A stretch of DNA of 44,005 nt from Vectrevirus T205P4: sequence record OZ035727.1, one strand, 5' to 3'. A program made the translations under genes and the position numbers. Of the stretch, positions 14,168 to 39,668 are shown in pieces; positions within the stretch are counted from its first letter, which is position 1, and each line of letters starts with the position of its first letter. The notes under the pieces were generated by a model. That model was not told where the DNA came from. It worked only from the letters and a program-made list of their open reading frames with translations, and did not search any database.

Positions 14168-14183
14168 GTCTCACACGTGAGAC
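14168..14183. repeat. 16-bp palindrome GTCTCACACGTGAGAC, copy 1
   Basis: Perfect inverted repeat, 2 nt upstream of promoter P3. Confidence 0.8.
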
Positions 14184-14184
14184 T

Positions 14185-14208
14185 CATTTACCGGACACTA
14201 TAGGAGAA
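14185..14208 (+). promoter_or_regulatory. Phage RNAP promoter P3 (CATTTACCGGACACTATAGGAGAA)
   Basis: Consensus match; first of two tandem promoters between RNAP and primase genes. Confidence 0.7.
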
Positions 14209-14260
14209 ACCATCGGAGATGGGAAAGAGAAGGAAGATAAAGGTAATAAAAGGCTATAAA

Positions 14261-14320
14261 GGAAGTAATAGGTATCAAAGGTTATATAGGTTTACCTAGG
14301 AATACCTATTACCTTCTTCC
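14261..14320. repeat. Purine-rich segment with inverted repeat (GGAAGTAATAGGTAT ... ATACCTATTACCTTCTTCC) in putative replication origin
   Basis: About 11-bp perfect arms separated by 26 nt, embedded in AG-rich / CT-rich flanks that are themselves roughly complementary. Confidence 0.5.
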
Positions 14321-14361
14321 TTCCTCTTATTACTACTTAGAGGAAAGGGCAGACTTAGGTT

Positions 14362-14377
14362 GTCTCACATGTGAGAC
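14362..14377. repeat. 16-bp palindrome GTCTCACATGTGAGAC, copy 2
   Basis: Perfect palindrome, 4 nt upstream of promoter P4. Confidence 0.8.
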
Positions 14378-14381
14378 TTCG

Positions 14382-14405
14382 TATTTACCGGACAGTATAG
14401 ATAAG
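14382..14405 (+). promoter_or_regulatory. Phage RNAP promoter P4 (TATTTACCGGACAGTATAGATAAG)
   Basis: Consensus-like with CAGTATAGAT variant; precedes the gp1.1-like and primase/helicase genes. Confidence 0.6.
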
Positions 14406-14430
14406 ACTAACTCACTTTGGAGATTTAACT

Positions 14431-14559
14431 ATGCGTAACTTTGAGAAGATGACCCGTAAAGCTAATCGTTTTGACATGGAAGAAGGGCAGAAGAAAGGCA
14501 AGAAGCTGAACAAACCTGTCCGCGACCGTGCATCTAAACGCGCTGCGTGGGAGTTCTAA
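14431..14559 (+). CDS. T7 gp1.1-like small basic protein, 42 aa (MRNFEKMTRKANRFDMEEGQKKGKKLNKPVRDRASKRAAWEF)
   Basis: GGAGA RBS; same length and same MRNFEKMT... start as I recall for T7 gp1.1; below track cutoff. Confidence 0.65.
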   Translation: MRNFEKMTRKANRFDMEEGQKKGKKLNKPVRDRASKRAAWEF

Positions 14560-14562
14560 GTT

Positions 14563-16551
14563 ATGGCTATTATTCAGAATGTACCGTGTCCTGCCTGTCA
14601 AAAGAATGGACATGATGTTACCGGCAACCATCTCATGATCTTTGATGATGGTGCTGGCTATTGCAACCGTGGTCACTTCCACGATAACGGAAAGCCATAC
14701 TACCATAAGCCCGAAGGTGGCATCGAGATAACCGAGTTGCCTATTACTGGCAATATCAAATATACACCTTCTCAGTTCAAAGAGATGGAGAAGGAAGGGA
14801 AGATAAGCGACCCTAAGCTACGCGCCATCGCACTTGGTGGTATGCGTATGAAAGACCGTTGGGAGGTTATGAATGAGCAAGAAAGGGCAGACCAAGAAGC
14901 AGAGTGGAAACTTGATGTTGAATGGTTCCTCACGCTTAAGCGTAAGAACCTTGTATCCCGACACATTCGCGGCGACATCGCAGCACTATATGATGTGCGA
15001 GTGGGCCATGATGAAGAAGGAAGAGTCAATCGTCACTACTACCCCCGCTTCGAGAAAGGTGAGCTAGTAGGCGCTAAGTGCCGTACCTTACCTAAAGACT
15101 TTAAGTTTGGTCATTTAGGTAAACTATTTGGTATGCAAGATCTTTTCGGTATGAATACTTTGTCTCACGTGTTAGACAAGGGAAGACGAAAGGATTGCTT
15201 GCTTATCGTAGGCGGCGAACTTGATGCACTAGCAGCCCAGCAGATGCTTCTTGATTCCGCCAAGGGCACTAAGTGGGAAGGACAACCATATCATGTGTGG
15301 TCTGTCAACAAGGGTGAGTCTTGCCTTGAAGAGATAGTGCAGAACCGTGAACATATCGCTCAATTCAAGAAGATTATATGGGGCTTTGATGGGGATGAGG
15401 TTGGGCAGAAGCAGAACCAACAAGCGGCTCGCCTGTTTCCTGGTAAATCCTATATCCTTGAGTATCCTTCTGGGTGTAAAGATGCTAACAAGGCATTGAT
15501 GGCTGGCAAGGCTAAAGAATTTGTGGATGCTTGGTTTAATGCCAAGTCATCTGATGAAGTCTTTGGTAGCCAGATTAAATCTATCGCATCTCAAAGGGAT
15601 AAGCTCAAGGCTGCACGTCCCGAGCAAGGATTGTCATGGCCTTGGCCTAAGCTGAACAAGGTAACGCTAGGTATTCGTAAGAACCAGCTTATCATTGTAG
15701 GTGCAGGGTCTGGTGTAGGTAAGACTGAGTTCCTTCGTGAAGTAGTTAAGCACCTCATTGAAGAACACGGTGAATCTGTAGGCATCATTTCTACAGAAGA
15801 CCCGATGGTCAAGGTGTCCCGTGCTTTTATCGGCAAGTGGATTGATAAGCGTATTGAGTTACCGCCAACCAACGACCCGAAAGAAGATGGATACCGTGAG
15901 GTGTTCGACTACACCGAGGAAGAAGCTAACGCCGCCATTGATTATGTAGCTGATACAGGTAAGCTGTTTGTAGCTGACCTAGAGGGTGACTATTCGATGG
16001 AAAAGGTAGAGCAAACTTGCCTAGAGTTTGAGGCTATGGGCATTTCTAATATCATCATTGATAACTTAACGGGGATTAAATTAGATGAGCGTGCTTTTGG
16101 TGGGAAGGTTGGTGCACTTGATGAATGCGTCAAGCGGATTGGTACTATCAAAGACCGACACCCGGTTACTATATTCCTTGTATCACACCTTACACGTCCT
16201 CCGGCAAACCGTACCCAACACGAAGAAGGTGGCGAAGTTATCCTTTCTGACTTCCGAGGCTCAGGAGCTATCGGATTCTGGGCATCTTACGCCTTGGGGA
16301 TTGAGCGTAATACAAGAGCTGAAACGCTTGACGAAAGGACTACCACGTACATCTCATGTGTCAAAGACCGCGACCAAGGTATCTGGACTGGAACCAAGGT
16401 CATGCTTAAGGGTGACATTCAAACCGGACGTTTAATGGAACCACAAGCCCGTACTAAGTCATTTGATACAGGTGAAGCAAGGCAACAAGAAGTACCAGAT
16501 TTACCGGACACTATAGAAGAGACTAACTTCGATGAAGAAAGTGAGTTCTGA
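14563..16551 (+). CDS. DNA primase/helicase (T7 gp4-like), 662 aa
   Basis: N-terminal Cys4 zinc ribbon (CPACQKNGHD...CNRGH), helicase Walker A GAGSGVGKT, acidic C-terminus ...FDEESEF ending in Phe as in T7 gp4. Confidence 0.93.
   Translation: MAIIQNVPCPACQKNGHDVTGNHLMIFDDGAGYCNRGHFHDNGKPYYHKPEGGIEITELPITGNIKYTPSQFKEMEKEGKISDPKLRAIALGGMRMKDRWEVMNEQERADQEAEWKLDVEWFLTLKRKNLVSRHIRGDIAALYDVRVGHDEEGRVNRHYYPRFEKGELVGAKCRTLPKDFKFGHLGKLFGMQDLFGMNTLSHVLDKGRRKDCLLIVGGELDALAAQQMLLDSAKGTKWEGQPYHVWSVNKGESCLEEIVQNREHIAQFKKIIWGFDGDEVGQKQNQQAARLFPGKSYILEYPSGCKDANKALMAGKAKEFVDAWFNAKSSDEVFGSQIKSIASQRDKLKAARPEQGLSWPWPKLNKVTLGIRKNQLIIVGAGSGVGKTEFLREVVKHLIEEHGESVGIISTEDPMVKVSRAFIGKWIDKRIELPPTNDPKEDGYREVFDYTEEEANAAIDYVADTGKLFVADLEGDYSMEKVEQTCLEFEAMGISNIIIDNLTGIKLDERAFGGKVGALDECVKRIGTIKDRHPVTIFLVSHLTRPPANRTQHEEGGEVILSDFRGSGAIGFWASYALGIERNTRAETLDERTTTYISCVKDRDQGIWTGTKVMLKGDIQTGRLMEPQARTKSFDTGEARQQEVPDLPDTIEETNFDEESEF
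16498..16521 (+). promoter_or_regulatory. Phage RNAP promoter P5 (GATTTACCGGACACTATAGAAGAG), inside the 3' end of the primase/helicase gene
   Basis: Perfect consensus copy about 30 nt before the helicase stop codon. Confidence 0.7.
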
Positions 16552-16572
16552 TTAGTGTATTTATCAGGGCTT

Positions 16573-16588
16573 GTCTCACATGTGAGAC
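16573..16588. repeat. 16-bp palindrome GTCTCACATGTGAGAC, copy 3 (extended GCTTGTCTCACATGTGAGACAGG)
   Basis: Lies 22 nt after the helicase stop; extended flank identical to the copy at 39653. Confidence 0.8.
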
Positions 16589-16627
16589 AGGCTCTTATTA
16601 AGTACATTAAATAACTGGAGATTGATT

Positions 16628-17311
16628 ATGTATAAATTAGTATTGAATGCAGGTGATTATGTTCGTAACATCAATGAAGCCTCACGTCGTTATCATTGCC
16701 GTGGTGTAGTGGCTCGTGTAAGTGAGAACATGTATCATGTAGAGTATGAGGATGGTATTAAGGCTTCTTACCACAAGAAAACAGCACATAAATATCTTGA
16801 AAAGATTGTAGAGATAAACAATCAATGTAAGTGCATACATGATGAGGTTTGCGATAAATGTGCTCGCCAGATGCTTAAGAATTTCCTAGCTCCTCTTTAT
16901 TATGGTGCTGGCCCTCAAACACTAGCAGAGTACATGGCAGAAAAGAAAACCACAATTAAGAAAGAGCGCCGCAATGTAATCACTGGTAAGACTCAAAGTG
17001 AAATGATTAAACTATGTGGCACTGCATTAGGTGTTACGCAGTTTAACACTCGTGCTCTTGGTAAATCCACAGGACAAGCTATGGTGAAAATTGGTGAAGC
17101 TATGATGCATCCAAATGTACCTGTACGAATCATGGATGTTGACCATGCAATCACAGAGCATGGCACACCACGGCGTGTAGCTAATAATCATTTTGCCGAC
17201 ACTATAGAAGGTATTATTCGTAAGCAAGAGTTGAAGGGTCTTCACATCTTAAATGGTGAAGAATTACTGTACCTACCTATCGTTACTGAAGAAACATACG
17301 TGAATATCTAA
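16628..17311 (+). CDS. Hypothetical protein, about 227 aa, with Cys cluster (CKCIHDEVCDKC)
   Basis: GGAGA RBS before ATG at 16628; no recognisable catalytic motif. Confidence 0.65.
   Translation: MYKLVLNAGDYVRNINEASRRYHCRGVVARVSENMYHVEYEDGIKASYHKKTAHKYLEKIVEINNQCKCIHDEVCDKCARQMLKNFLAPLYYGAGPQTLAEYMAEKKTTIKKERRNVITGKTQSEMIKLCGTALGVTQFNTRALGKSTGQAMVKIGEAMMHPNVPVRIMDVDHAITEHGTPRRVANNHFADTIEGIIRKQELKGLHILNGEELLYLPIVTEETYVNI
17189..17212 (+). promoter_or_regulatory. Possible weak phage promoter (CATTTTGCCGACACTATAGAAGGT) internal to the 16628 gene
   Basis: Core GACACTATAGAAGG conserved, upstream half deviates at 3 positions. Confidence 0.35.
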
Positions 17312-17321
17312 GGAGTTAATC

Positions 17322-17540
17322 ATGACTAAGGTATTAATTTATATGCGTGGACCTCATAAATGCTATGCAGTTGTAGCACCAAATGGTGTTAAGCCCTATA
17401 GAACTTCAAAAAGATTGGCATTAGTAGGTGCTAGTAGTAGTGCAAGTTTCCAAATGGAACTTTTTGGTCATTGGACTGAACGGCAATTCCGTGAGGATTT
17501 TAAAGTCATTGGCAGCTTCATGGTGAAATATGCAGAATAA
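17322..17540 (+). CDS. Hypothetical protein, 72 aa
   Basis: AGGAG RBS before ATG. Confidence 0.5.
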   Translation: MTKVLIYMRGPHKCYAVVAPNGVKPYRTSKRLALVGASSSASFQMELFGHWTERQFREDFKVIGSFMVKYAE

Positions 17541-17739
17541 ACATAGTCTTAAAATGTTCGATGGTCATGAAGACCTGCAAGCCAAGATTACTAACCAAGC
17601 CTTCCTGTTCGCACAGGTAACTATGGCTGAAGCAAAGAAGAATAGCCTGACGCGTGAACAGGTTATCAAGGAGGCAACTTGGGAGCCACACCAAGGTAAA
17701 TACATGGGCCAGAAATTAACGGTAACACGCAGTCGATAA
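17530..17739 (+). CDS. Hypothetical protein, 69 aa (start uncertain)
   Basis: Overlaps previous stop; alternative ATG at 17554. Confidence 0.45.
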   Translation: MQNKHSLKMFDGHEDLQAKITNQAFLFAQVTMAEAKKNSLTREQVIKEATWEPHQGKYMGQKLTVTRSR

Positions 17740-17749
17740 GTCAAGGGTT

Positions 17750-17765
17750 GTCTCACACGTGAGAC
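17750..17765. repeat. 16-bp palindrome GTCTCACACGTGAGAC, copy 4
   Basis: Perfect palindrome 11 nt after the 17530 ORF stop. Confidence 0.8.
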
Positions 17766-17796
17766 AGCCTTTCATCATATTGATTGGAGGTGCATT

Positions 17797-17904
17797 ATGC
17801 CACGTGATTATGATTCTGATTGGGATTTCCAAGATTCAATGCAACCTAAACCAGAAAGGAGGGAGGATGAGTTCGAAACAGATCAAATGTATGAGGATTT
17901 TTAC
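17797..17904 (+). CDS. Hypothetical acidic micro-protein, 35 aa (MPRDYDSDWDFQDSMQPKPERREDEFETDQMYEDFY)
   Basis: TTGGAGG RBS 6 nt upstream; overlaps the HNH gene start; could instead be untranslated leader. Confidence 0.3.
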
Positions 17905-18346
17905 TAACTACATCCTCTATTCCGACGGTCGTATCTTTAGTGATAAGAAGAAGAGATACCTAACAGGTACTCTTGATAGCTACGGTTACCGTCAAGTTAA
18001 ACTTAATGGAGACTTATACCTCTTACACAGGTTAGTTGCATTATATTTCATTCCTAATCCCGATAACTTACCTGAAGTTGATCACGTAGATTTTAACCGA
18101 GACAATAATTGTGTATCTAATCTACGGTGGGTTTCCAGAAGAACCAACCTAGAGCATAGCAAGGTAAGACGCTGTACTGCACAGGCTAAGTTTTATAACT
18201 TCGTAGACCCTGACGGTAATATTGTTACAGTGTATGGTCTATCTTCTTTCTGCAAAGAGAATGGACTAAGCCAAGCAGCGATGCACCATGTGTGGTCTGG
18301 TAATAGAAATCATCACAAAGGTTGGACTAAATATGTTGAATGTTGA
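17867..18346 (+). CDS. Free-standing HNH homing endonuclease, about 160 aa
   Basis: GYRQVKL...LHRLVALYFIPNP...VDHVDFNRDNN...NLRWV...N pattern typical of phage HNH endonucleases; AGGAGGGAGG RBS before ATG at 17867. Confidence 0.85.
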   Translation: MSSKQIKCMRIFTNYILYSDGRIFSDKKKRYLTGTLDSYGYRQVKLNGDLYLLHRLVALYFIPNPDNLPEVDHVDFNRDNNCVSNLRWVSRRTNLEHSKVRRCTAQAKFYNFVDPDGNIVTVYGLSSFCKENGLSQAAMHHVWSGNRNHHKGWTKYVEC

Positions 18347-20879
18347 TTGGAAAGAATACGGTAAAAACCGGATCCTAGTTATGGACGCCGAAGCAAAAGG
18401 CTTGCTTGATGCCATACGCTATGGTCATCGTGAAGATGTGCACATCATTTGCTGCATGGATTTACTCACCACTGAGGAGTTCCTATTCTTCGACCCATAT
18501 GAGATGCGTGACCCTGAGGCAAGGGAACGCCTGAAGGAGTGGGAAGGCCATCAAGACGGAACCTTGGTTGATGGTGTTAACTTCCTAAAGCACTGTGAAG
18601 CCATCGTCTCACAGAACTTCCTAGGCTATGACGGGCTTCTCTTTGAGAAAGCCTTCCCTGACATCTGGAAAGGATTTAACTACACCGAGAGGCGCGGCAA
18701 TGGCAGACTACGTGCTGACCTGTGTCCGGTACGCGTCATGGATACGCTGGTCATGAGTCGCCTGTTAAACCCAGATAGACGCCTTCCTCCGCAAGCATAT
18801 GCCAAAGGCATGGGTAACGTCGCCCCTCACTCAATTGAGGCGCACGGCATCCGTATAGGCCGCTATAAACCAGAGAACGAGGACTGGTCTAAACTAACTG
18901 ACCACATGGTTCACCGTGTACGTGAAGACGTGGCAATTGGTCGTGACCTTTTCCTATGGCTTTACAACGGAGAGTGGACGGAGCACAAACGCCGTGGCGT
19001 GAATAAACGTACTGGCCTAGGTATTGAGACAGCCTTCCACATGGAGTCCATTGTGGCGCTGGAGATGAGCCGTCAGGCCGAGCGCGGGTTCCGTCTGGAC
19101 ATCGACAAGGCTTTGGCCCGATGCGAAGAATTGGACGCTAAAATTGACGAGACAGTCGCAGCGTTCCGCCCTCACATGCCTATGCGTATCAAGTCTAAAC
19201 CTTTTAAACCGGAAGAAAAGAATGAAGTATGCCAACGCGCAAATGAGTATGGAGCTAGCAACAATATACCTACTGTCCTTGACCCCTCACACTTTCTTCA
19301 TGCCGAGAGACGAGGAGATCGCAAGACAGTATGGAGTGTCACTACTAAGTCTGGTGATTGGTCGGCTAGTGTCAAGAAAGACTTCCCTCACCTTAGAGGA
19401 AACCGTAATGACACGCCAAGCATCAAGTGGATTGGCGCTTACTCGCCTGTTACTTTCGAAGAGATTCCCTTGGGTAACAGGGATACAGTTAAGCAAGTGC
19501 TCTATGATTATGGATGGAAAGGTGTTGAATTTAACGATACCGAGCAAGCTCATCTCGATGAGCACGGAGTGTTACCCAAACCTTGGAGTGGTAAGATAAA
19601 TGAAAAGTCCCTTACTTTATGGCAAGAAAGAGCCGCACGTGAAGGTAAAACAGTCCCTGATTGGTGCTTGGGTATCGCTGCATGGTACATACTCGTATCC
19701 CGTCGTGGTCAGATACTCAACCGTGGTGACGTTGAAGCCTTCAACGAGAAGGGAACGTGGCCCTCGCAGGCTGGTGTACGAAAGTGTCGCGGCCTTGTAC
19801 CGGTAGCATTCAACAAGGAGCTAGGAATCAATGCGCAGCAATACTACGAGAGGTACGGATATTGGCCTACGTCTGACAAAGATGACGGAGAGTGGCGTGT
19901 TCCAGCTGTTGCTATTAGTATTGGCACTTCTACGTTCCGTATGCGTCATCGTAACGTGGTTAATATTCCTGCCCGTGGCTTGTATCCTTTACGTGATTTA
20001 TTCATAGCAGGGAAAGGCAAGCTAATCCTTGGTTGTGACGGTGCAGGTCTTGAACTGCGTGTCCTGTCTCACTTCATGAATGACCCTGAGTACCAAGAGA
20101 TTGTACTGCACGGTGATATTCATACGCATAACCAGATGAAGGCTGGTCTTCCTAAGCGTGATATGGCGAAGACGTTTATATACGCCTTCCTCTATGGCTC
20201 TGGTATAGCCAACCTTGCAGCAGTATGTGGTGTTACTGAGGAGGAAATGAAGGAAGTTGTGGCAAGATTCGAGATTGAACTGCCGTCTCTTGCACGTCTT
20301 CGTGAGAATGTTATCGCACAAGGTAACAAGTTTGGCTACCTGCAAGCACCTGATGGGCATTGGGGTCGCATCCGCATGTCTGGTGGTGAACTTAAAGAGC
20401 ACACGATGCTTAACGTATTACTCCAGATGACTGGCTCTTTGTGTATGAAATATGCATTAGTAAAGGCATTTGCAGTAATGCGCAAGGAAGGTGTAGCCTT
20501 GGATGCTATGGGAAATCCTTGTGGTGTGGCTAACGTGCATGATGAAATCCAGATGGAAGTTCCTGAAGAGGAGGTCTTGTATCTTAACTACGACCTACCT
20601 TTCACCTTAGATGGGTTCGAAACAGAGAAGGCTGCCGTGAAAGCAGTGTTCGATGCAGAGGAGAAACGTGTTCATGTGGATTCTGAAGGACGTATGTGGT
20701 CTGCTGCAAACCTCGTCAGTGTTGATGCTGATGCTGGTGTATTGCATTGCCAGCGCCGTTATCACCGTGCAGGGCATATCATTGCCGACGCCATGACTTG
20801 GGCTGGTCAGTATCTGAAGATGCGTTGCCCGATGGCAGGAGAATATAAGATTGGCACAAGTTGGAAGGAAACACACTGA
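18333..20879 (+). CDS. DNA polymerase, family A (T7 gp5-like), about 848 aa
   Basis: N-terminal 3'-5' exonuclease motif (VMDAEAKGL), long polymerase domain, size close to SP6-type DNAP; start at ATG 18333 (MLNVDWKEYG). Confidence 0.95.
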   Translation: MLNVDWKEYGKNRILVMDAEAKGLLDAIRYGHREDVHIICCMDLLTTEEFLFFDPYEMRDPEARERLKEWEGHQDGTLVDGVNFLKHCEAIVSQNFLGYDGLLFEKAFPDIWKGFNYTERRGNGRLRADLCPVRVMDTLVMSRLLNPDRRLPPQAYAKGMGNVAPHSIEAHGIRIGRYKPENEDWSKLTDHMVHRVREDVAIGRDLFLWLYNGEWTEHKRRGVNKRTGLGIETAFHMESIVALEMSRQAERGFRLDIDKALARCEELDAKIDETVAAFRPHMPMRIKSKPFKPEEKNEVCQRANEYGASNNIPTVLDPSHFLHAERRGDRKTVWSVTTKSGDWSASVKKDFPHLRGNRNDTPSIKWIGAYSPVTFEEIPLGNRDTVKQVLYDYGWKGVEFNDTEQAHLDEHGVLPKPWSGKINEKSLTLWQERAAREGKTVPDWCLGIAAWYILVSRRGQILNRGDVEAFNEKGTWPSQAGVRKCRGLVPVAFNKELGINAQQYYERYGYWPTSDKDDGEWRVPAVAISIGTSTFRMRHRNVVNIPARGLYPLRDLFIAGKGKLILGCDGAGLELRVLSHFMNDPEYQEIVLHGDIHTHNQMKAGLPKRDMAKTFIYAFLYGSGIANLAAVCGVTEEEMKEVVARFEIELPSLARLRENVIAQGNKFGYLQAPDGHWGRIRMSGGELKEHTMLNVLLQMTGSLCMKYALVKAFAVMRKEGVALDAMGNPCGVANVHDEIQMEVPEEEVLYLNYDLPFTLDGFETEKAAVKAVFDAEEKRVHVDSEGRMWSAANLVSVDADAGVLHCQRRYHRAGHIIADAMTWAGQYLKMRCPMAGEYKIGTSWKETH

Positions 20880-20995
20880 TGGATAGGCTTGACATTGTTT
20901 GCCTGTTCTTCACTTTCTTTCTTACACTCCTTATGCTTGCTTGTTATGGGAGTGTGAGACTAGATGTACCTGATGAAGAAGAGGGTTACGACTAA
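20879..20995 (+). CDS. Small membrane protein, 38 aa, hydrophobic core plus acidic C-terminus (DVPDEEEGYD)
   Basis: TGATG overlap with DNAP stop; below track cutoff. Confidence 0.35.
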   Translation: MDRLDIVCLFFTFFLTLLMLACYGSVRLDVPDEEEGYD

Positions 20996-21093
20996 TGCAA
21001 ACTGCTTTTATTATTCTTGGTATCGTATTATTTATGGTAGTACTCTGGGCCTTCTCTGGCATTGACCCGGATTGTGATGGTAACTACGACTGA
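20995..21093 (+). CDS. Small membrane protein, 32 aa, hydrophobic core plus acidic C-terminus (DPDCDGNYD)
   Basis: TAATG overlap with previous small ORF; same architecture. Confidence 0.35.
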   Translation: MQTAFIILGIVLFMVVLWAFSGIDPDCDGNYD

Positions 21094-21150
21094 GTTATAC
21101 TCAAGGTCACTTACGAGTGGCCTTTATGAATAACTTAACTGGAGAGTATT

Positions 21151-21411: not shown

Positions 21412-21433
21412 TTTACTGGACACTATAGAAGGA
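21410..21433 (+). promoter_or_regulatory. Phage RNAP promoter P6 (GATTTACTGGACACTATAGAAGGA)
   Basis: Consensus copy overlapping the stop of the 21151 gene. Confidence 0.8.
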
Positions 21434-21497
21434 AAGCCTAGGTAATCTAGGTTTATAAGGTAGTATGGGTAATTAAGTAAATATAGGAGATATAAAT

Positions 21498-23294: not shown

Positions 23295-23310
23295 GTCTCA
23301 CGTGTGAGAC
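23295..23310. repeat. 16-bp palindrome GTCTCACGTGTGAGAC, copy 5 (reverse orientation of the CACG variant)
   Basis: Perfect palindrome 14 nt upstream of promoter P8. Confidence 0.8.
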
Positions 23311-23324
23311 AAATCGGTGTCCGG

Positions 23325-23348
23325 TATTTACTGGACACTATAGAAGAG
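23325..23348 (+). promoter_or_regulatory. Phage RNAP promoter P8 (TATTTACTGGACACTATAGAAGAG)
   Basis: Perfect consensus. Confidence 0.8.
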
Positions 23349-31541: not shown

Positions 31542-32747
31542 ATGTCTACACCGAATACTCTGACCAACGTTGCAGTCTCCGCTTCCGGTGAGGTAGACAG
31601 CCTGCTCATTGAGAAATTCAATGGTAAGGTGAATGAGCAGTACCTGAAAGGTGAGAACATCATGTCCTACTTCGATGTTCAGACTGTCACTGGTACTAAC
31701 ACGGTAAGCAACAAATACTTGGGTGAAACAGAGTTGCAGGTTCTGGCACCGGGTCAGTCTCCTGCTGCAACCTCTACTCAGGCCGATAAAAACCAGCTGG
31801 TAATTGATGCCACTGTTATCGCTCGTAACACCGTTGCACACCTGCATGATGTACAGGGTGATATTGACAGCCTGAAACCGAAGCTGGCTACCAACCAAGC
31901 TAAGCAGCTTAAGAAGATGGAAGATGAAATGCTGATTCAGCAGATGCTGCTGGGCGGTATTGCTAACACTCAGGCTAAGCGTACTAATCCGCGTGTTAAA
32001 GGCCATGGCTTCTCTGTCAACGTAGAAGTTGCAGAAAGTGAAGCACTGGTCAACCCGCAGTATGTAATGGCGGCTGTAGAGTTTGCTCTGGAGCAGCAGC
32101 TTGAGCAGGAAGTAGACATCTCTGATGTAGCTATCCTGATGCCGTGGCGCTACTTCAACGTACTGCGTGATGCAGACCGTATCGTTGACAAGAGCTACAC
32201 CATTAGCCAGTCTGGTGCAACCATTCAGGGTTTTGTTCTGTCTTCTTACAACTGCCCTGTTATCCCGTCTAACCGCTTCCCTAAATTCTCTGCTGGTCAG
32301 AAACATCACCTGCTGTCAAATGAAGACAACGGTTATCGTTATGACCCGACTGCAGAAATGAATGGCGCTATCGCTGTACTGTTCACTGCTGATGCGTTGC
32401 TGGTTGGTCGTTCTATTGATGTTACTGGCGATATCTTCTATGAGAAGAAAGAGAAGACCTACTACATTGATACTTTCATGTCTGAAGGTGCAATCCCTGA
32501 TCGTTGGGAAGCAGTGTCTGTTGTGACAACTAAGCGTAACTCATCTACTGGTGATGCTGAGGGTACTGATGGAGCACAGCACACTCAAGTTCTTAACCGT
32601 GCACAGCGCAAAGCTGTATACGTCAAGAATGCTGCTCCGGCAGGTGCTGCCGCTGCTGCTAGTCTGTCTGCTGAAGACTTAGTTGCTGCTGTCCGTGCTG
32701 TCATGGCAAATGACATTAAGCCGACTGCAATGAAACCTGCTGAGTAA
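31542..32747 (+). CDS. Major capsid protein, 401 aa
   Basis: Strongest promoter and AAGGAGG RBS; followed by strong terminator; position between scaffold and tail-tube genes. Confidence 0.88.
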   Translation: MSTPNTLTNVAVSASGEVDSLLIEKFNGKVNEQYLKGENIMSYFDVQTVTGTNTVSNKYLGETELQVLAPGQSPAATSTQADKNQLVIDATVIARNTVAHLHDVQGDIDSLKPKLATNQAKQLKKMEDEMLIQQMLLGGIANTQAKRTNPRVKGHGFSVNVEVAESEALVNPQYVMAAVEFALEQQLEQEVDISDVAILMPWRYFNVLRDADRIVDKSYTISQSGATIQGFVLSSYNCPVIPSNRFPKFSAGQKHHLLSNEDNGYRYDPTAEMNGAIAVLFTADALLVGRSIDVTGDIFYEKKEKTYYIDTFMSEGAIPDRWEAVSVVTTKRNSSTGDAEGTDGAQHTQVLNRAQRKAVYVKNAAPAGAAAAASLSAEDLVAAVRAVMANDIKPTAMKPAE

Positions 32748-32754
32748 TACCTAT

Positions 32755-32789
32755 GCCCTATCTACCTTGCGTAGGTAGGGTTCTTTTTG
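32755..32789 (+). terminator. Strong hairpin terminator after the capsid gene (CCCTATCTAC-CTTGC-GTAGGTAGGG then TTCTTTTTG)
   Basis: 10-bp stem with one G-U pair, U-rich tract; analogous to T7 T-phi. Confidence 0.75.
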
Positions 32790-32801
32790 TTAGGAGGATT
32801 C

Positions 32802-33539
32802 ATGCCTGTAATTAAACAAACCAGTAAAGTAGGGCACATGATGGAAGATGTGGCCTTCCAGATTATTGATAGCAAGCTTGAAGCGGTCAACTTGTGTATG
32901 CGAGCTATTGGTCGTGAGGGTGTGGATTCTCTCGACTCAGGCGATCTTGATGCAGAAGATGCAAGTAAGATGATTGATATTGTATCCCAGCGCTTCCAGT
33001 ATAACAAAGGCGGTGGCTGGTGGTTCAATCGTGAACCTAACTGGCAGCTTGCACCAGACACGAACGGTGAGATTAACTTGCCTAATAACTGCCTAGCTGT
33101 ATTGCAGTGCTACGCATTGGGTGAGAAGAAAGTGCCTATGACTATGCGAGCAGGTAAGCTCTACTCTACTTGGAGTCACACCTTTGATATGCGTAAGCAT
33201 GTTAATGCTAATGGTATGATTCGTCTTACCTTACTCACCTTACTACCCTACGAGCATCTACCTACAAGTGTAATGCAGGCTATTGCCTATCAAGCTGCTG
33301 TAGAGTTTATTGTGTCTAAGGATGCAGATCAGACTAAGCTAGCCACTGCGCAGCAGATAGCCACTCAGCTTCTTATGGATGTACAATCTGAGCAAATGTC
33401 ACAGAAGCGATTAAACATGCTGGTACATAACCCCACTCAGCGTCAGTTTGGTATCATGGCTGGTGGCTCTCAGAATGTACCTGCTTACTCTCATTCACCT
33501 TATGAAAGTTGGGCGCTCCGTCCGTGGGAGGATCGTTAA
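32802..33539 (+). CDS. Tail tubular protein A (gp11-like), about 245 aa
   Basis: AGGAGG RBS before ATG at 32802; position before tail tubular protein B. Confidence 0.8.
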   Translation: MPVIKQTSKVGHMMEDVAFQIIDSKLEAVNLCMRAIGREGVDSLDSGDLDAEDASKMIDIVSQRFQYNKGGGWWFNREPNWQLAPDTNGEINLPNNCLAVLQCYALGEKKVPMTMRAGKLYSTWSHTFDMRKHVNANGMIRLTLLTLLPYEHLPTSVMQAIAYQAAVEFIVSKDADQTKLATAQQIATQLLMDVQSEQMSQKRLNMLVHNPTQRQFGIMAGGSQNVPAYSHSPYESWALRPWEDR

Positions 33540-35941
33540 TGGAAGTACAAGGTTCATTAGGTAGACAAATCCAAGGGATTAGCCAGCAGCCTCCAGCGGT
33601 ACGTCTTGATGGTCAATGTACGACTATGGTGAACATGGTCCCTGATGTAGTGAATGGAACTCAATCCCGCATGGGTACAACTCACATTGCTAAGCTCTTG
33701 GATGAAGGTACAGATAATATGGCAACGCACCATTATCGCAGGGGTGAGGGAGATGAAGAGTATTTCTTCACCTTAAAGAAGGGGCAAGTGCCAGAGATAT
33801 TTGATAAGCATGGACGCAAGTGCAATGTCATCTCTCAAGATGCACCTATTGCCTACCTTTCTGAAGTTGTTAACCCTAGGGAAGATGTGCAATTCATGAC
33901 TATAGCTGATGTTACTTTTATGCTTAACCGTAGGAAAGTGGTTAAAGTTAGTAATAGGAAGTCACCTAAAGTTGGAGATAAAGCCATTGTGTTTTGTGCA
34001 TATGGTCAATACGGTACATCTTATTCCATTGTAATTAATGGGGCCAACGCTGCTAGTTTTAAAACACCGGATGGTGGAAGTGCAGACCATGTTGAACAAA
34101 TTCGAACTGAACGTATCACTTCTGAATTGTACTCTAAGTTGCAGCAATGGAGCGGTGTGAGTGACTATGAAATACAAAGAGACGGTACTAGTATATTTAT
34201 CGAGAGACGGGATGGTGCTAGCTTTACAATAACAACCACCGATGGTGCAAAAGGTAAGGACTTAGTGGCTATCAAGAATAAAGTTAGCTCTACTGACCTA
34301 CTCCCTTCTCGTGCTCCTGCTGGTTATAAAGTACAAGTGTGGCCTACTGGCAGCAAACCTGAGTCTCGTTACTGGCTGCAAGCTGAGCCTAAAGAGGGAA
34401 ACCTTGTATCTTGGAAAGAAACAATAGCTGCCGATGTATTACTTGGGTTTGATAAAGGCACAATGCCTTACATTATTGAACGTACAGGTATCATCAACGG
34501 CATAGCTCAATTCAAGATAAGACAAGGTGATTGGGAAGATCGTAAAGTAGGGGATGACTTGACTAACCCTATGCCCTCTTTTATTGATGAGGAAGTACCC
34601 CAGACAATAGGTGGAATGTTCATGGTGCAGAACCGCCTATGCTTTACAGCAGGTGAAGCGGTTATTGCTTCTCGTACATCATACTTCTTCGATTTCTTTC
34701 GTTATACGGTTATCTCTGCATTGGCAACTGACCCATTTGATATTTTCTCAGATGCTAGCGAAGTCTACCAGCTAAAACATGCAGTGACCTTAGATGGCGC
34801 TACCGTGTTGTTCTCTGATAAGTCACAATTCATACTGCCAGGCGATAAGCCTTTAGAGAAGTCAAATGCATTGCTTAAGCCTGTTACAACATTTGAAGTG
34901 AACAATAAAGTGAAGCCAGTAGTAACTGGTGAATCGGTAATGTTTGCCACTAATGATGGTTCTTACTCTGGTGTACGAGAGTTCTATACAGACTCTTATA
35001 GTGACACTAAGAAGGCACAAGCAATCACAAGTCATGTGAATAAACTCATCGAAGGTAACATTACCAACATGGCAGCAAGCACCAATGTCAACAGGTTACT
35101 TGTCACTACCGATAAGTATCGTAACATAATCTACTGCTACGATTGGTTATGGCAAGGAACAGACCGTGTACAATCAGCATGGCATGTATGGAAGTGGCCT
35201 ATAGGTACAAAGGTGCGAGGTATGTTTTATTCTGGTGAATTACTTTACCTGCTCCTTGAGCGAGGGGATGGCGTATATCTGGAGAGGATGGACATGGGTG
35301 ATGCACTAACCTACGGTTTGAATGACCGCATCAGAATGGATAGGCAAGCAGAGTTAGTCTTCAAGTATTTTAAAGCAGAAGATGAATGGGTGTCTGAACC
35401 GCTTCCTTGGACTCCTACTAACCCAGAACTTTTAGATTGCATCTTAATCGAGGGTTGGGATTCATATATTGGTGGCTCTTTCTTATTCAAGTACAACCCT
35501 AGTGACAATACTTTGTCTACAACCTTTGATATGTATGATGACAGTCATGTAAAAGCGAAGGTTATTGTTGGTCAGATTTACCCTCAAGAGTTTGAACCTA
35601 CACCTGTGGTTATCAGAGACAATCAAGACCGTGTATCCTATATTGATGTACCAGTTGTAGGATTGGTTCACCTTAATCTTGACATGTACCCCGATTTCTC
35701 CGTAGAAGTTAAGAATGTGAAGAGTGGTAAAGTACGTAGAGTATTAGCGTCAAACCGTATAGGTGGTGCTCTCAATAATACAGTAGGCTATGTTGAACCG
35801 AGAGAAGGTGTCTTCAGATTTCCACTGAGAGCTAAGAGCACGGATGTTGTTTATCGTATTATTGTAGAGGCACCCCATACATTCCAGCTTCGTGATATTG
35901 AGTGGGAAGGGAGCTACAATCCAACCAAAAGGAGGGTCTAA
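33539..35941 (+). CDS. Tail tubular protein B (gp12-like), about 800 aa
   Basis: N-terminal GISQQP motif as in T7 gp12; TAATG coupling to the upstream gene. Confidence 0.88.
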   Translation: MEVQGSLGRQIQGISQQPPAVRLDGQCTTMVNMVPDVVNGTQSRMGTTHIAKLLDEGTDNMATHHYRRGEGDEEYFFTLKKGQVPEIFDKHGRKCNVISQDAPIAYLSEVVNPREDVQFMTIADVTFMLNRRKVVKVSNRKSPKVGDKAIVFCAYGQYGTSYSIVINGANAASFKTPDGGSADHVEQIRTERITSELYSKLQQWSGVSDYEIQRDGTSIFIERRDGASFTITTTDGAKGKDLVAIKNKVSSTDLLPSRAPAGYKVQVWPTGSKPESRYWLQAEPKEGNLVSWKETIAADVLLGFDKGTMPYIIERTGIINGIAQFKIRQGDWEDRKVGDDLTNPMPSFIDEEVPQTIGGMFMVQNRLCFTAGEAVIASRTSYFFDFFRYTVISALATDPFDIFSDASEVYQLKHAVTLDGATVLFSDKSQFILPGDKPLEKSNALLKPVTTFEVNNKVKPVVTGESVMFATNDGSYSGVREFYTDSYSDTKKAQAITSHVNKLIEGNITNMAASTNVNRLLVTTDKYRNIIYCYDWLWQGTDRVQSAWHVWKWPIGTKVRGMFYSGELLYLLLERGDGVYLERMDMGDALTYGLNDRIRMDRQAELVFKYFKAEDEWVSEPLPWTPTNPELLDCILIEGWDSYIGGSFLFKYNPSDNTLSTTFDMYDDSHVKAKVIVGQIYPQEFEPTPVVIRDNQDRVSYIDVPVVGLVHLNLDMYPDFSVEVKNVKSGKVRRVLASNRIGGALNNTVGYVEPREGVFRFPLRAKSTDVVYRIIVEAPHTFQLRDIEWEGSYNPTKRRV

Positions 35942-36687
35942 TGGCTATAGGTTCAGCCGTTATGGCTGGTATGTCTTCTATTGGTAGTATGTTTGCAGGT
36001 AGCGGTACAGCAGCCGCTGCTGGTGGTACTGCCGCAGCAGCAGGAGGGACAGCCGCCGCAGGTGGCGGAGGTTTGCTTGGCTCCCTTGGTAGTTTCTTAG
36101 GAGGTTCTTCTGCTGGCTTCTCTAATGCAGGACTGCTTAGTGCAGGTATGCAAGGTCTTGGTCTTCTAGGCAATCTTTTTGGTGGAAGTGATGAAGCCAA
36201 AGCTATGAAGAAAGCTCAGGAGGAGCAATGGCGGCAGCAGTTAATTGCTACACAAGAAGCATATAAGACAGTGGCAGATGCAGAACGCTCTGCTGCTAAA
36301 CAGTATCATGCGGATGCAATAAGCAATCAGGCTTCACTGCTACAGCAAAGAGCGCAGGTTGCACTACTTGCAGGTGCAACTGGCACTGGTGGTAACTCTA
36401 TATCTTCTATGCTGAATGACTTAGCAGCAGAGGGCGGGAGGAACCAGAGTACAATTATTGATAACTATGAGAATCAGAAGATTAACTTCACCAATCAGCT
36501 TAAGTCTATCCAGCGAGGTGGACAGATGCAGATGCGTGAGTTTAAGAAGCCTTCTGCCGTGAGCACCTTGGTGCAAGGTATACCGAGTCTGGCATCTGCC
36601 TATGTAACAGGTAGTAAGTCCGGCATGGCTTTAGGTAAAGCTTTAACTGATTCTCGTACATATTCATCTGGAACAAGAGGTATTTAA
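35941..36687 (+). CDS. Internal virion protein (gp14-like, Gly/Ala-rich N-terminus), about 249 aa
   Basis: AGGAGGG RBS; first of three internal-core genes. Confidence 0.7.
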   Translation: MAIGSAVMAGMSSIGSMFAGSGTAAAAGGTAAAAGGTAAAGGGGLLGSLGSFLGGSSAGFSNAGLLSAGMQGLGLLGNLFGGSDEAKAMKKAQEEQWRQQLIATQEAYKTVADAERSAAKQYHADAISNQASLLQQRAQVALLAGATGTGGNSISSMLNDLAAEGGRNQSTIIDNYENQKINFTNQLKSIQRGGQMQMREFKKPSAVSTLVQGIPSLASAYVTGSKSGMALGKALTDSRTYSSGTRGI

Positions 36688-39635
36688 TGGCAATTGAGCG
36701 ACAAGCAGTACAAGGTCTGCCACAAGTGCAGGCCACTTCTCCTAATGTCATGACCTTTGCACCTCAGCGAGTTGGAGGTGTGGAGGCTGGCGTAGCTTCT
36801 ACCTCCGGTAGTCGATTTATCGAAGACCTTATTCGAGCAGCCAGTAGTGTAGCTGATGTAACCACTGGTATCCTTAATCAAAAGATTGAGGAAGATAAGG
36901 TTGTTCAAATGGAACGGGCATATAACGGATTAATGCCTTCTGAGGATGCAACTCGTGGTGGCGCTCGTGCTAACATGCTTGTCAAAGCTCAACTGCTAGC
37001 TAATGATGAAGCAGCACGAATGAAAGACATGGCTACTCGTTTCCAAGGAACGGATGACGAGTGGACACAACTTATGGTTGACTCTCGTAATGAGATGCAG
37101 AATAAGCTGTTCCAGCAATACCCTGAGTTGCAAGGTGACAAAGATACTATGCGTATGGTCACTAATGTCTTCCAAGAACAGCAGCCTCAGATTTGGGCTA
37201 CACGAACCCAGCATAAACTTGACCGTGAACAAGCAGACCGTGAGGATACCTTTGACGGGCGAGTGGCTTCTACTTGGGATTCTAATATTGACCCTGAAGC
37301 CTCTGGCTATGCTTTACAGGAACGAATCCGCGAAGGTCTTACTCAAGGATTACTACCTGAACAGATGCACAAGAAGTTAGTCCAGCGAGCAATTTCACTT
37401 GCACAAGGCGGTGATGTTAGCATGGCTGAAGCCCTGAAGTATGTGAAGGACGATAAGGGTGTTTCTGTTTATGCTAAGAATCCACAGCTTATCACAGCCA
37501 TCACTAGTGGTAATGCAGTTTGGGCTAGGAATAATGTAGCTGATGTAACTCGTATGTCTTTCGAAGTTAAAGAATCCTACCTTGCAGGTGATTTAACTGA
37601 TGAAGAATTGTTGGAACGAGCACAGCACATTAATAATCTGACAGGTAACTCTGTCTTCTCTAATCCAGAGCTAGAGGCACTGATGCGCCAACGGGCTAAG
37701 CAGAATGCAGAGCTAGGTGCAATGCAGGATATGCGACGTGAGCTTTACTCCGACCGCCTGACTGGCTTCCAAGGTAAGACTGATAAAGAGAAGAAGGCTT
37801 ACATTGATGTTATCAAACAAGATAGCCAACTTTATGCAGACCAGCAAATCAAACAACGTGGCTTGGACCCTTACAGTCAAGAGGCTGAAGCTATTCGTGG
37901 TGCAGTGGAAGTGCAGCGCCTACAATTCATGAACTCCAAAGGCTTAGTGGATGATACCTTTGAGTCTCGTATCAAAGCCATGGAATCTATGCTATCGCCT
38001 GAGCACTTTGCCAAGGGCGAACCACAAGAGTTGATGACTATTCGCCAGTTGTGGGAACAGTTGCCAGAAGAGAGCCGAGGTGTCTTTGGTGACACGGTGA
38101 ATGGCTACATGGATAACTACAACACTGCACTACAAATGGGAGAGACACCTTTGCAGGCTGCAAGGTTTGCGCGTGAAGCACAGCAGAAATTCTCTCGTAC
38201 TGAGAAGGAAACCAAGAAGTTCAACTCAGCTATTGGAGAGGCACTGGATGAGGTGTCTGGTGCTGGCTGGTTTGATGGTAAAACCGAAGTGTCAGACTTA
38301 GGTAAAGCTATTGCGGAAGAAGAGTTACGAGCTAAGGCCAATATGTTGTGGTCTAGTGGTATGCGTAACATGGATTCCATCAAGAAGGCTTTAATTACTT
38401 GGGGCAATAAACGCTACACTCAATCAGAGGATGCAAAGACTTCCGGTGGCTATTTCATTAAAGGTGATTACACTTCTGCATCTGATATGCTTATGTCAGT
38501 TGGGAAAGGCGTAAACCCTACCGATGTACCTCTGGCGCTTGGTAGGTATGTAGAAACACAGATGCCAGAATTGAAGAAGGAGCTTCAAGAGTGGGAAACT
38601 AAAGATGATATATACATTGATTACAATGAACAGAAAGGAACTTTTGTGATTCGTGCTGGTGCAGCAGGTCGCCCTCTTTCTGGAGTAATCCCTGTAACCT
38701 CTTTAGATACTACTTCACTACTAGATTCTGCCTATCAGAAGAAAGTAGAGGAACGAGATAAAGGCGAGTATGTTCACCCGTATCGTACAGATATTGGTGC
38801 ACAAGAGCCTATGCCAGCTAAACCAACTGCCAAAGATATTGGTAAATTTGGACTAGCTAACTTCCTCATGTCTTCTGCTTTTGCTTCTGGTGAGAATCTG
38901 CCTTCTAACTTCGAGATTAACTATCGAGGTAATATGCAACAATTCTATGACAAGCTAGCTATGGATGAGAATAAAGATAAAGTTGGCTTTAATAAGGCAA
39001 CTGGAACCTTTACTCCATATAAAGACGCTCACGGTGAGTCTATCGGTTACGGTCATTTCTTAACGGAAGAAGAGAAGCGAAACGGGTATATTAAGATTGG
39101 CGATGAACTAGTTCCCTATCGAGGGTCTATGTCTCAGCTTACAGAGAGCAAGGCTCGCGCCCTTATGGAGCAAGATGCTAAGAAGCATGTGCCTCCTACT
39201 CGTGACTGGAAGATTCCGTTTGACCAGATGCATCCTGCACAGCAACGTGGCTTGATGGATTTAACCTACAATTTAGGTAAAGGTGGAATCCAGAACTCAC
39301 CGCGTGCTCTTGCTGCATTCAAAGCTGGTAAGCTTACGGAGGGTTTTATCGAAATGCTGGGCACTGCATCAAGTGAAGGTAAGCGTATTCCTGGCCTACT
39401 GAAGCGACGCGCTGAGGCATACAATATGGCATCTGCTGGTGGTGTGCCTAAGATTACCGAAGTGGAGACTCGTGAAGATGGCTCCATGTGGGTTAGGTTT
39501 GGTGGACCTATGCCAGCAGGTTCTGTCTCGGCATGGACTCATAAACGTATTGGCGCGGATGGTTGGTATCAGGTTTATGAGGCTGCACCTACCAAGTTAG
39601 CTAAAGGTTCTAAGGTAGGTAAAGTTAAGTTGTAG
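36687..39635 (+). CDS. Internal virion (ejection) protein with C-terminal lysozyme-like peptidoglycan hydrolase domain, 982 aa
   Basis: C-terminal region ESIGYGHFLT ... LMDLTYNLGKGG ... GKRIPGLLKRRAEAY resembles T4/lambda-type lysozyme folds. Confidence 0.8.
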   Translation: MAIERQAVQGLPQVQATSPNVMTFAPQRVGGVEAGVASTSGSRFIEDLIRAASSVADVTTGILNQKIEEDKVVQMERAYNGLMPSEDATRGGARANMLVKAQLLANDEAARMKDMATRFQGTDDEWTQLMVDSRNEMQNKLFQQYPELQGDKDTMRMVTNVFQEQQPQIWATRTQHKLDREQADREDTFDGRVASTWDSNIDPEASGYALQERIREGLTQGLLPEQMHKKLVQRAISLAQGGDVSMAEALKYVKDDKGVSVYAKNPQLITAITSGNAVWARNNVADVTRMSFEVKESYLAGDLTDEELLERAQHINNLTGNSVFSNPELEALMRQRAKQNAELGAMQDMRRELYSDRLTGFQGKTDKEKKAYIDVIKQDSQLYADQQIKQRGLDPYSQEAEAIRGAVEVQRLQFMNSKGLVDDTFESRIKAMESMLSPEHFAKGEPQELMTIRQLWEQLPEESRGVFGDTVNGYMDNYNTALQMGETPLQAARFAREAQQKFSRTEKETKKFNSAIGEALDEVSGAGWFDGKTEVSDLGKAIAEEELRAKANMLWSSGMRNMDSIKKALITWGNKRYTQSEDAKTSGGYFIKGDYTSASDMLMSVGKGVNPTDVPLALGRYVETQMPELKKELQEWETKDDIYIDYNEQKGTFVIRAGAAGRPLSGVIPVTSLDTTSLLDSAYQKKVEERDKGEYVHPYRTDIGAQEPMPAKPTAKDIGKFGLANFLMSSAFASGENLPSNFEINYRGNMQQFYDKLAMDENKDKVGFNKATGTFTPYKDAHGESIGYGHFLTEEEKRNGYIKIGDELVPYRGSMSQLTESKARALMEQDAKKHVPPTRDWKIPFDQMHPAQQRGLMDLTYNLGKGGIQNSPRALAAFKAGKLTEGFIEMLGTASSEGKRIPGLLKRRAEAYNMASAGGVPKITEVETREDGSMWVRFGGPMPAGSVSAWTHKRIGADGWYQVYEAAPTKLAKGSKVGKVKL

Positions 39636-39652
39636 TACCTAACTCAAGGCTT

Positions 39653-39668
39653 GTCTCACATGTGAGAC
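39653..39668. repeat. 16-bp palindrome GTCTCACATGTGAGAC, copy 6 (extended GCTTGTCTCACATGTGAGACAGG)
   Basis: Between the two large internal virion protein genes; same extended form as copy 3. Confidence 0.8.

Follow-up and report, generated by a model that had tools for sequence, protein, structure and literature searches.

The stretch analyzed here, called the window throughout, is the complete 44,005-bp sequence of Vectrevirus T205P4 (sequence record OZ035727.1), a circularly permuted K1E/K1-5-like genome from the SP6 branch (Molineuxvirinae) of the T7 supergroup, with its physical left end near position 7987. In the region tested, it shared 92 to 94% identity with many K1E/K1-5-like phages. 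All long open reading frames (ORFs) lie on the + strand, there are ten phage promoters matching ATTTACYGGACACTATAGRAG, and no Rfam family matched anywhere in the window at gathering thresholds. The subject of this work is a family of short palindromic elements, in which two inverted 7-bp half-sites (GTCTCAC) flank a 2-bp centre, and their proposed reader, the product of a conserved, function-unassigned early gene (10520 to 11404).

An earlier note made from the sequence alone had reported six perfect copies of a 16-bp palindrome and a single degenerate one, all intergenic. The exact pattern GTCTCACAYGTGAGAC gave nine strand-matches corresponding to six sites (14168, 14362, 16573, 17750, 23295, and 39653), all of those reported, and a chance origin was rightly dismissed, with 0.00 sites expected from 100 dinucleotide-preserving shuffles of the window. 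Only three of the six (14362, 16573, and 39653, with an AT centre) are true 16-bp palindromes, however; those at 14168 and 17750 (AC centre) and at 23295 (GT on the + strand, fitting the pattern of the note on the − strand only) carry a nonpalindromic dinucleotide between 7-bp inverted arms. A mismatch-tolerant scan returned the degenerate copy at 8618 and a second one at 15162, which brings the total to eight sites, designated S0 to S7 (Table 1); the second lies in the primase/helicase ORF (14563 to 16551), so the family is not wholly intergenic. Both degenerate copies have the right arm GTTAGAC and keep the other half-site perfect. Half-sites outside the eight sites were not enriched (4 observed versus 5.1 expected), and the inverted pair is therefore the unit. 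The extended identity described for two copies was located at 16573 and 39653 and covers 24 nucleotides (nt) (GGCTTGTCTCACATGTGAGACAGG) rather than 23.

Table 1. Palindromic sites S0 to S7 and associated features of the window
Feature	Position	Strand	Remarks
S0	8618-8633	none	GTCTCAC-AC-GTTAGAC; ~630 bp from left genome end; 67 bp 5' of -35 hexamer of early promoter 8701-8729
Early promoter, sigma70 type	8701-8729		Downstream of S0
Early gene, proposed reader	10520-11404	+	294 amino acids (aa); K1E gp6 / SP6 gp7; phrog_4571
S1	14168-14183	none	GTCTCAC-AC-GTGAGAC; 3' of RNA polymerase (RNAP) gene and its terminator hairpin; 2 bp before promoter 14186-14206
Phage promoter	14186-14206	+	ATTTACCGGACACTATAGGAG; adjoins S1
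S2	14362-14377	none	Perfect palindrome GTCTCACATGTGAGAC; 5 bp before promoter 14383-14403
Phage promoter, nonconsensus	14383-14403	+	ATTTACCGGACAGTATAGATA; adjoins S2
S3	15162-15177	none	GTCTCACGTGTTAGAC, i.e., GTCTCAC-GT-GTTAGAC; within primase/helicase ORF 14563-16551
Hairpin with S4	16552-16610	+	After primase/helicase gene; -30 to -31.5 kcal/mol
S4	16573-16588	none	Perfect palindrome; apex of hairpin 16552-16610; begins 21 nt after stop codon
Hairpin with S5	17730-17786	+	RNase III-site architecture; mid-stem covaries freely among genera
S5	17750-17765	none	GTCTCAC-AC-GTGAGAC; apex of hairpin 17730-17786; begins 10 nt after stop codon
S6	23295-23310	none	GTCTCAC-GT-GTGAGAC; begins 1 nt after stop codon; 15 bp before promoter 23326-23346
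Second inverted repeat	23316-23339	+	GGTGTCCGGT-ATTT-ACTGGACACT; 3' arm within promoter 23326-23346
Phage promoter	23326-23346	+	ATTTACTGGACACTATAGAAG; downstream of S6
Hairpin with S7	39632-39690	+	Matched by T7-site covariance model (ACUCAAGG...CUUUAUGAU)
S7	39653-39668	none	Perfect palindrome; apex of hairpin 39632-39690, between two large internal-virion-protein genes; 17 nt after stop codon

Conservation of the motif and its positions in related genomes, a check that the earlier note had proposed, was observed: all eight sites were syntenic in K1E, KAW1A4500, SP6, PM116, and POP72 and in 20 further loci collected with the primase/helicase protein as the query, and the relatives examined span Molineuxvirinae, Colwellvirinae, and Gajwadongvirus. 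Within any genome the sites share one half-site type, and few types occur overall (GTCTCAC, GTC(C/T)AAC, GTCTAGT, and TTCGAG). The sites read GTCTAAC-NN-GTTGGAC in SP6, GTCCAAC-NN-GTTGGAC in the Pectobacterium phage POP72, and GTCCAAC-NNN-GTTGGAC in the Proteus phage PM116. In Colwellvirinae they read GTCTCAC-NNN-GTGAGAC, in contexts like those of the window and beside different promoters, with nine copies in Vibrio phage AS51, eight in Pseudomonas phage Njord (16.5 kb), and four in Aeromonas phage MJG in the sequence examined. In T7 and T3, neither the palindrome family nor the early protein was found. A scan of viral_contigs with the exact pattern gave, among the matches listed, mostly single and presumably chance occurrences.

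The earlier emphasis on a CACGTG core was misplaced, as the centre drifts and flips among relatives (ACT to AGT and AC to GT at one site between sister phages) and the outer arms are the conserved part. The copy within coding sequence follows the half-site type of its genome wherever the code allows. In the window, S3 is read as TCT CAC GTG TTA GAC (S H V L D) and matches the family motif wherever the coding sequence permits, and its SP6 counterpart reads TCT AAC GTG TTG GAC (S N V L D). Erwinia phage phiEa1H carries an analogous S-H-V-L-D copy in its RNAP gene; the best possible codons, the N-to-H change, and Leu as TTA appear in whichever gene bears the site. S0, syntenic in K1E, SP6, PM116, and Era103, retains the old-type arm on one side in the window and on both sides in locus L026. 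Such concerted, type-specific change over dispersed 16-bp sites requires a sequence-specific reader.

The early gene lies just 5' of the RNAP gene in every palindrome-bearing phage. An AlphaFold2 (AF2) model of its product showed an all-helical N-terminal domain (residues 1 to 122; predicted local distance difference test [pLDDT] 83 to 94), followed by an acidic disordered linker, a long helix (190 to 234) that may form a coiled coil, and, at the C terminus, a conserved domain. A helix-turn-helix (HTH) is predicted at helices 46 to 57 and 61 to 74 (...EF-A/G/S-I-K-KAQCYKLMSVARVF). In fold searches the DNA-binding domains of SopB, P1 ParB, VirB, Noc, and KorB recurred, with Foldseek TM values of 0.54 to 0.60 and E values of at least 1; the KorB domains 8qa8 and 1r71 were among these marginally scoring matches. 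Viral DUF3102 proteins matched by fold at E 1.4e-4, and Pfam DUF3102 gave a weak signal (E 0.015) in two of eight orthologues. Apart from this signal, Pfam, NCBIfam, and PDB sequence searches with the early protein returned no match, ParBc and HTH models included, and no DNA-binding domain emerged when ten conserved proteins of unassigned function were scanned against Pfam and PHROG. An N-terminal ParB/Srx CTPase domain was not found, and there is no space for one, since the helical domain begins at residue 1. The C-terminal 70 aa (11150 to 11401; PMLPQFKS.C.YA.LGL ... GYG.GH.A) are highly conserved from Marinomonas phages to coliphages. A search with this domain returned fragments only, and a likeness to J-domains seen by eye, with the HPD motif absent, gained no support from a PDB sequence search.

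Residue 66 of the early protein, at position six in the second HTH helix, followed the half-site in 28 of 28 genomes, with Lys accompanying GTCTCAC and Asn or His accompanying GTC(C/T)AAC. Asn was present in the GTCCAAC genomes and in UAB_Phi78 (GTCTAAC/GTTGGAC), and His in SP6. Among 193 alignment columns in 17 representative taxa, two separated the classes, and column 66 alone was invariant within one class; in the control proteins RNAP (845 columns), primase/helicase (608), and DNA polymerase (790), no column was invariant in one class. Lys facing the G opposite C5 and Asn facing A5 are the usual major-groove contact preferences. The protein tree places the Lys-type Colwellvirinae and phiEa1H at its base and the Lys-type Vectrevirus inside the Asn/His clade, which indicates a reversal from Asn to Lys, with all the sites reverting to GTCTCAC together. 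Residue 66 and the half-site type have switched at least twice, in opposite directions. More divergent helices pair with other sites: KAWAYRLM with GTCTAGT-NN-ACTAGAC in the Pectobacterium phage PP99 and in MR4, where residue 66 is Arg with AGT, and KSSVSEWC with GGTTCGAG-AT-CTCGAACC in Marinomonas phage CPP1m. A five-genome scan of all conserved proteins for type-correlated columns was misleading: it flagged terL and two internal virion proteins, hits that we attribute to the gene tree, and column 66 escaped it, since that position holds His in SP6 but Asn in PM116 and POP72.

From this covariation of the half-site with one residue of a predicted recognition helix, we consider it likely that the palindromes are duplex-DNA operators of the early protein, which is the dimeric-protein site listed among the candidate roles in the earlier note. 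The two HTH domains of a dimer would each read one 7-bp half-site, with residue 66 reading base pair 5. The conserved arms around a drifting and flipping centre would follow from a dimer operator, and the indifference to orientation seen at S0 and the single perfect half-site of the degenerate copies from recognition of duplex DNA. In a tightly packed genome, such sites would be placed where a palindrome is tolerated, namely, in pre-promoter spacers (S0, S1, S2, and S6), at the apex of RNase III-type hairpins that were already there (S4, S5, and S7), and in the S-H/N-V-L-D codons (S3), and the RNA hairpin at each site would be a by-product. We infer DNA binding by the early protein and, because the most conserved context of the sites is directly 5' of promoters, promoter-proximal regulation of the first phage promoters and the early host-type promoter; the protein may also organise a putative origin between S1 and S2. 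Such regulation could be activation, repression, or insulation; S3, S4, S5, and S7 are the promoter-distant sites.

Placement beside promoters, given in roughly the same terms in the earlier note, was observed for S1, S2, and S6, which end 2, 5, and 15 bp before phage promoters (three of the eight sites; ten promoters in the window). By a hand estimate, three such placements among the seven noncoding sites have a chance of about 1e-3 even with sites confined to intergenic DNA, and with S0 and its early host-type promoter included, four of the eight sites lie just upstream of a promoter. The same adjacency was found in SP6, PM116, Era103, AS51, Njord, and MJG. S0-type sites lie 6 to 12 bp 5' of a TTGACA hexamer in Njord, L019, L021, and L022 and abut a phage promoter at the left end in PM116 and Era103. 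In the window, PM116, and AS51, and apparently in SP6, the promoter beside S2 departs from the consensus of its phage. A tie between the palindrome and promoter specificity was rejected, as GTCTCAC is retained in Vibrio and Pseudomonas phages whose promoters differ.

S6, the spacer AAATC, and the second inverted repeat form a conserved composite; the core with AAATC is present in the window, SP6, and AS51 (AGAA in PM116), and in SP6, PM116, and Vibrio AS51 the 5' arm of the repeat changes in step with the promoter. In read-through RNA, this repeat folds the promoter at 23326 into a hairpin, resembling T7 R13 and R3.8, in which promoter sequence likewise lies in hairpins. Between the two post-RNAP promoters, a noncoding transcribed region (14207 to 14361) holds many short TAGGT-type repeats and folds, over 178 nt, into a long hairpin of purine/pyrimidine character (-45 kcal/mol). 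SP6, PM116, POP72, and phiEa1H have repeat arrays of a similar kind. S1 and S2 bracket a promoter and this TAGGT-rich region in a layout like that of the T7 primary origin, and the region is probably a replication origin.

At the level of RNA, S4, S5, and S7 each sit at the tip of a long hairpin (-27 to -31 kcal/mol) in which a 2x3 internal loop separates the lower stem from an upper stem of 13 bp, the same architecture as T7 and T3 RNase III sites (annotated in the T3 record). The S4 hairpin showed compensatory changes at five pairs and a mid-stem shortened by 2 bp on both strands. In the S5 alignment, 10 of 24 pairs had compensatory double changes, and G-U pairs occurred at several positions, on the + strand only. 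Seven experimentally defined RNase III sites of T7 were used to build a covariance model, which matched the S7 hairpin in the window with 28.7 bits (E 0.0025), in SP6 with 44 bits (E 6e-7), in PM116 with 40, and in POP72 with 38; the S4 and S5 hairpins were not reported by this model at E ≤10. S0, S1, S2, and S6 are stand-alone hairpins with 6- to 7-bp stems and no conserved lower stem. The minimum RNase III substrate has a helix of ~11 bp from the cleavage site (distal box) (PMC3867540), a length exceeded by the 13-bp upper stems of S4, S5, and S7 and not reached by the stand-alone copies. Three copies begin 21, 10, and 17 nt after stop codons (16573, 17750, and 39653), close to the 11 to 22 nt claimed in the earlier note, and a fourth (23295) begins 1 nt after one.

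The hairpins at S4, S5, and S7 are genuine RNA structures and probably RNase III sites. The phiEa1H counterpart of the S7 hairpin scored 31 bits with a short, T7-like apex and no palindrome; the RNase III role is thus separate from the palindrome, which is an add-on to these hairpins. A canonical T7-type site without palindrome was also observed in the window after the DNA polymerase gene, at 21089 to 21141 (GAGTTATACTCAAGGTCACTTACGAGTGGCCTTTATGAATAACTT; 51 bits), with an upper stem close to the T7 consensus and an SP6 equivalent at L004:12222-12274. Two early-region hairpins (9676 to 9726 and 10449 to 10500) have RNase III-site architecture with other apices and scored 24 and 21 bits (E 0.03 and 0.2). 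The RNase III role suggested in the earlier note therefore holds for the hairpin context of S4, S5, and S7 and not for the palindrome itself. The note was right that the copies are not simple terminators: the 3' flanks (TCATTT, TTCGTA, AAATCG, AACCTA, and AGGCTC) lack a consistent U-tract, the G+C-rich hairpin leading straight into a U-tract that marks an intrinsic (rho-independent or class I) terminator was not seen, and S0 was not called as a terminator in a consensus scan of the left-end region. Its further suggestion of a pause or terminator element for the phage RNAP found no support, given these flanks and the same core in phages with very different promoters.

The most serious alternative to a DNA operator is a family of RNA hairpins on + strand transcripts, with S4, S5, and S7 as RNase III sites, S1, S2, and S6 as 3'-end or stabiliser hairpins, and any specific reader binding RNA. 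The T7/T3-like folds of S4, S5, and S7, their strong covariation with G-U pairs on the + strand, and the matches of the T7-site model to S7 and its homologues fit this explanation, as do the U-G asymmetry on the transcribed strand of SP6, the loop length differing between lineages, and the fact that T7 and T3 RNase III sites too adjoin promoters. Yet the stand-alone stems fall short of the RNase III minimum (PMC3867540), and the conserved Watson-Crick stem with a variable loop is the reverse of what is usual when an RNA hairpin is recognised and of the T7 pattern, in which conservation falls on the base of the upper stem. Moreover, S0 lies 5' of the early promoter and in SP6 pairs better on the − strand, a C-U mismatch interrupts the stem of S0 and S3, the S7 hairpin of phiEa1H lacks the palindrome, and the tracking of base pair 5 by residue 66 of an HTH-like protein is left unexplained. 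We regard this explanation as unlikely.

Two further explanations appear still less probable. Single-stranded DNA hairpins acting in replication, as priming or helicase-loading signals near the origin, would fit the clustering of five sites out of eight in a 3.6-kb span at the putative origin and primase/helicase gene, the T7-origin-like layout of S1 and S2 around a promoter and TAGGT-type repeats, and the GTC that begins every arm, GTC being the T7 primase recognition triplet. The SP6 primase uses a triplet other than that of T7, a 6- to 7-bp hairpin is weak in DNA, S7 lies 22 kb from the cluster, and neither the concerted change at positions 4 and 5 nor its link to the nonprimase residue 66 is explained, no primase/helicase column tracking the type; a replication signal of this kind is thus very improbable. 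It is also hard to credit that there is no reader and that the copies are homogenised by gene conversion or template switching among palindromes, or by a need to pair mutually. The centre flips at one site between close relatives do show that hairpin-mediated DNA rearrangement occurs, and copies are near-identical within each genome. Drift with homogenisation, however, would not keep a 7-bp arm from Pseudomonas, Vibrio, and Aeromonas phages to coliphages, 16 bp of homology is very short for ectopic conversion, and neither the covariation with a protein nor the reversal to the exact ancestral sequence with Lys is predicted. Likenesses to host transcription factor sites (CRP, SlmA, MatP, and MetJ), primase sites, class II pause sites, and restriction sites were considered and discarded for misfitting half-site order or spacing or a motif type that does not follow the host.

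Several observations weigh against operators read by the early protein. The independent events are few (K to N, N to K, and N to H, with two divergent classes). The half-sites are 3 bp apart at most Colwellvirinae and Acadevirus sites and 2 bp apart at the Acadevirus left-end site, which is awkward for a rigid dimer, and the site-promoter distance varies from 0 to 15 bp across sites and genera with no fixed helical phasing. Five to seven sites of SP6 and UAB_Phi78 have arms whose asymmetry runs in one orientation, with U-G on the + strand and never C-A except at S0; this is predicted by an RNA hairpin, and it is also compatible with a C-to-T bias of the + strand, which the positive GC skew suggests. 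The AF2 model rests on a shallow alignment of 14 sequences with a mean pLDDT of 67, and the assignment to the ParB/KorB/SopB family is marginal. At L015:3222 (IMGVR_UViG_2974597675_000001, a Vectrevirus), the S4 core is of the GTCCAAC type and the other sites are GTCTCAC, so that individual sites may be dispensable; the S4 flanks there are identical to those of Zindervirus-like phages, and the site looks like a recombination mosaic at the hairpin.

Further features were observed near the sites. An HNH homing-endonuclease ORF (17781 to 18346; Pfam HNH_3, E 3e-8) is inserted immediately 3' of the S5 hairpin, and K1E gene 9.5 and similar optional genes abut the lower stem of the S4 hairpin; given these abutting genes, hairpins of the S4/S5 type may mark module junctions. 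S0 with its flank AACCTAGG resembles an inverted S2 with the flank TTAGGTT (CCTAGGTT in K1E), and short-repeat arrays of CTTAG(T) and CCTAG occupy 8340 to 8470 and 8570 to 8645, near the left genome end. In the early leader, ~150 nt 3' of the sigma70-type promoter, the sequence TGCTCTTTAACAA (8882 to 8895) is a near-match to the rrn-type boxA antitermination consensus. In Vibrio AS51 (L030), a perfect GTCTCAC-GCT-GTGAGAC (4686 to 4702) lies in the overlap of two annotated RNAP gene fragments (3171 to 4727 and 4615 to 5955), and the apparent frameshift may be a sequencing artefact at the palindrome. The Gajwadongvirus phages PP99 (L156; 162, 7940, 8018, and 16306) and MR4 (L157) carry a second palindrome family, GTACTAGT-YRG-CTAGTAC, beside the GTCTAGT operators just before promoters, which may be the site of a second protein or a promoter-hairpin analogue.

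Extended to the whole group, the operator interpretation holds that every phage of the SP6/K1E and Colwellvirinae types of Autographiviridae, in contrast to T7, has a dedicated early protein that binds DNA at specific sites (DUF3102-like, with a ParB/KorB fold) and four to nine operators per genome. The protein would act as a global regulator of the first phage and early host-type promoters or as an origin organiser, and a single Lys/Asn switch in its recognition helix could reprogram its specificity; we think this on balance probable. To our knowledge, gene control in the T7 group is described in terms of the phage RNAP, promoter strength, RNase III processing, and lysozyme feedback, and we know of no sequence-specific DNA-binding regulator in that picture. 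The motif and the function of the early protein were not described in the searchable literature, the original SP6 and K1-5 genome papers aside, where an earlier mention is possible. If correct, the interpretation would add a regulatory layer, lacking in T7 and T3, to a large and therapeutically used branch of the T7 group (K1E, K1-5, SP6, and related phages of Klebsiella, Proteus, Pectobacterium, Erwinia, Vibrio, Aeromonas, and Pseudomonas). It would also give a function to a conserved unknown protein and a hint for DUF3102, explain the tolerance of long palindromes in compact genomes, and provide natural matched protein/operator variants with a one-residue switch, usable as orthogonal parts alongside SP6-type polymerases.

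Among known systems, the T7 and T3 RNase III sites (R0.3 to R18.5) share the asymmetric internal loop and intergenic position of S4, S5, and S7, and S7 also shares the sequence ACUCAAGG...CUUUAUGA. In T7 and T3, however, the base of the upper stem is conserved and the apex varies, whereas the hairpins described here combine an invariant apex with a covarying mid-stem; five copies out of eight lie outside such hairpins, and T7-type sites without palindrome are present at 21089 to 21141 and, more weakly, at 9676 to 9726. The lambda, 434, and P22 repressors resemble the reader proposed here as HTH dimers on inverted half-sites whose specificity can change by a single residue; residue 66 would contact inner base pairs, as does the sixth position of the recognition helix in the 434 repressor. 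They differ in that the phage considered here is strictly lytic, the sites extend over 31 kb rather than one control region, and the protein is predicted to have a long helix and ends in a separate, conserved domain. As is proposed for the phage, ParB-parS, Noc-NBS, and SopB-sopC combine 16-bp palindromic sites with dimeric HTH domains of the ParB fold, and with its usual flank (TGTCTCAC..GTGAGACA) the phage half-site is 7/8 identical to the parS half-site, TGTTTCAC; the phage half-sites are 2 to 3 bp further apart, there is no sign of partition, spreading, or CTP binding, and the fold scores are marginal. KorB, the ParB-family global regulator of the IncP plasmid RK2, acts on about a dozen short palindromic OB operators, some directly 5' of promoters and others far from them. 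The phage protein differs from KorB in having no detected CTPase domain, no sequence similarity, and another C-terminal domain, and in belonging to a lytic phage with a single-subunit RNAP and operators of 7-bp arms around a 2- to 3-bp centre. The likeness lies in a predicted, putatively ParB-type HTH protein and short palindromic operators dispersed over a small replicon, both adjacent to and distant from promoters.

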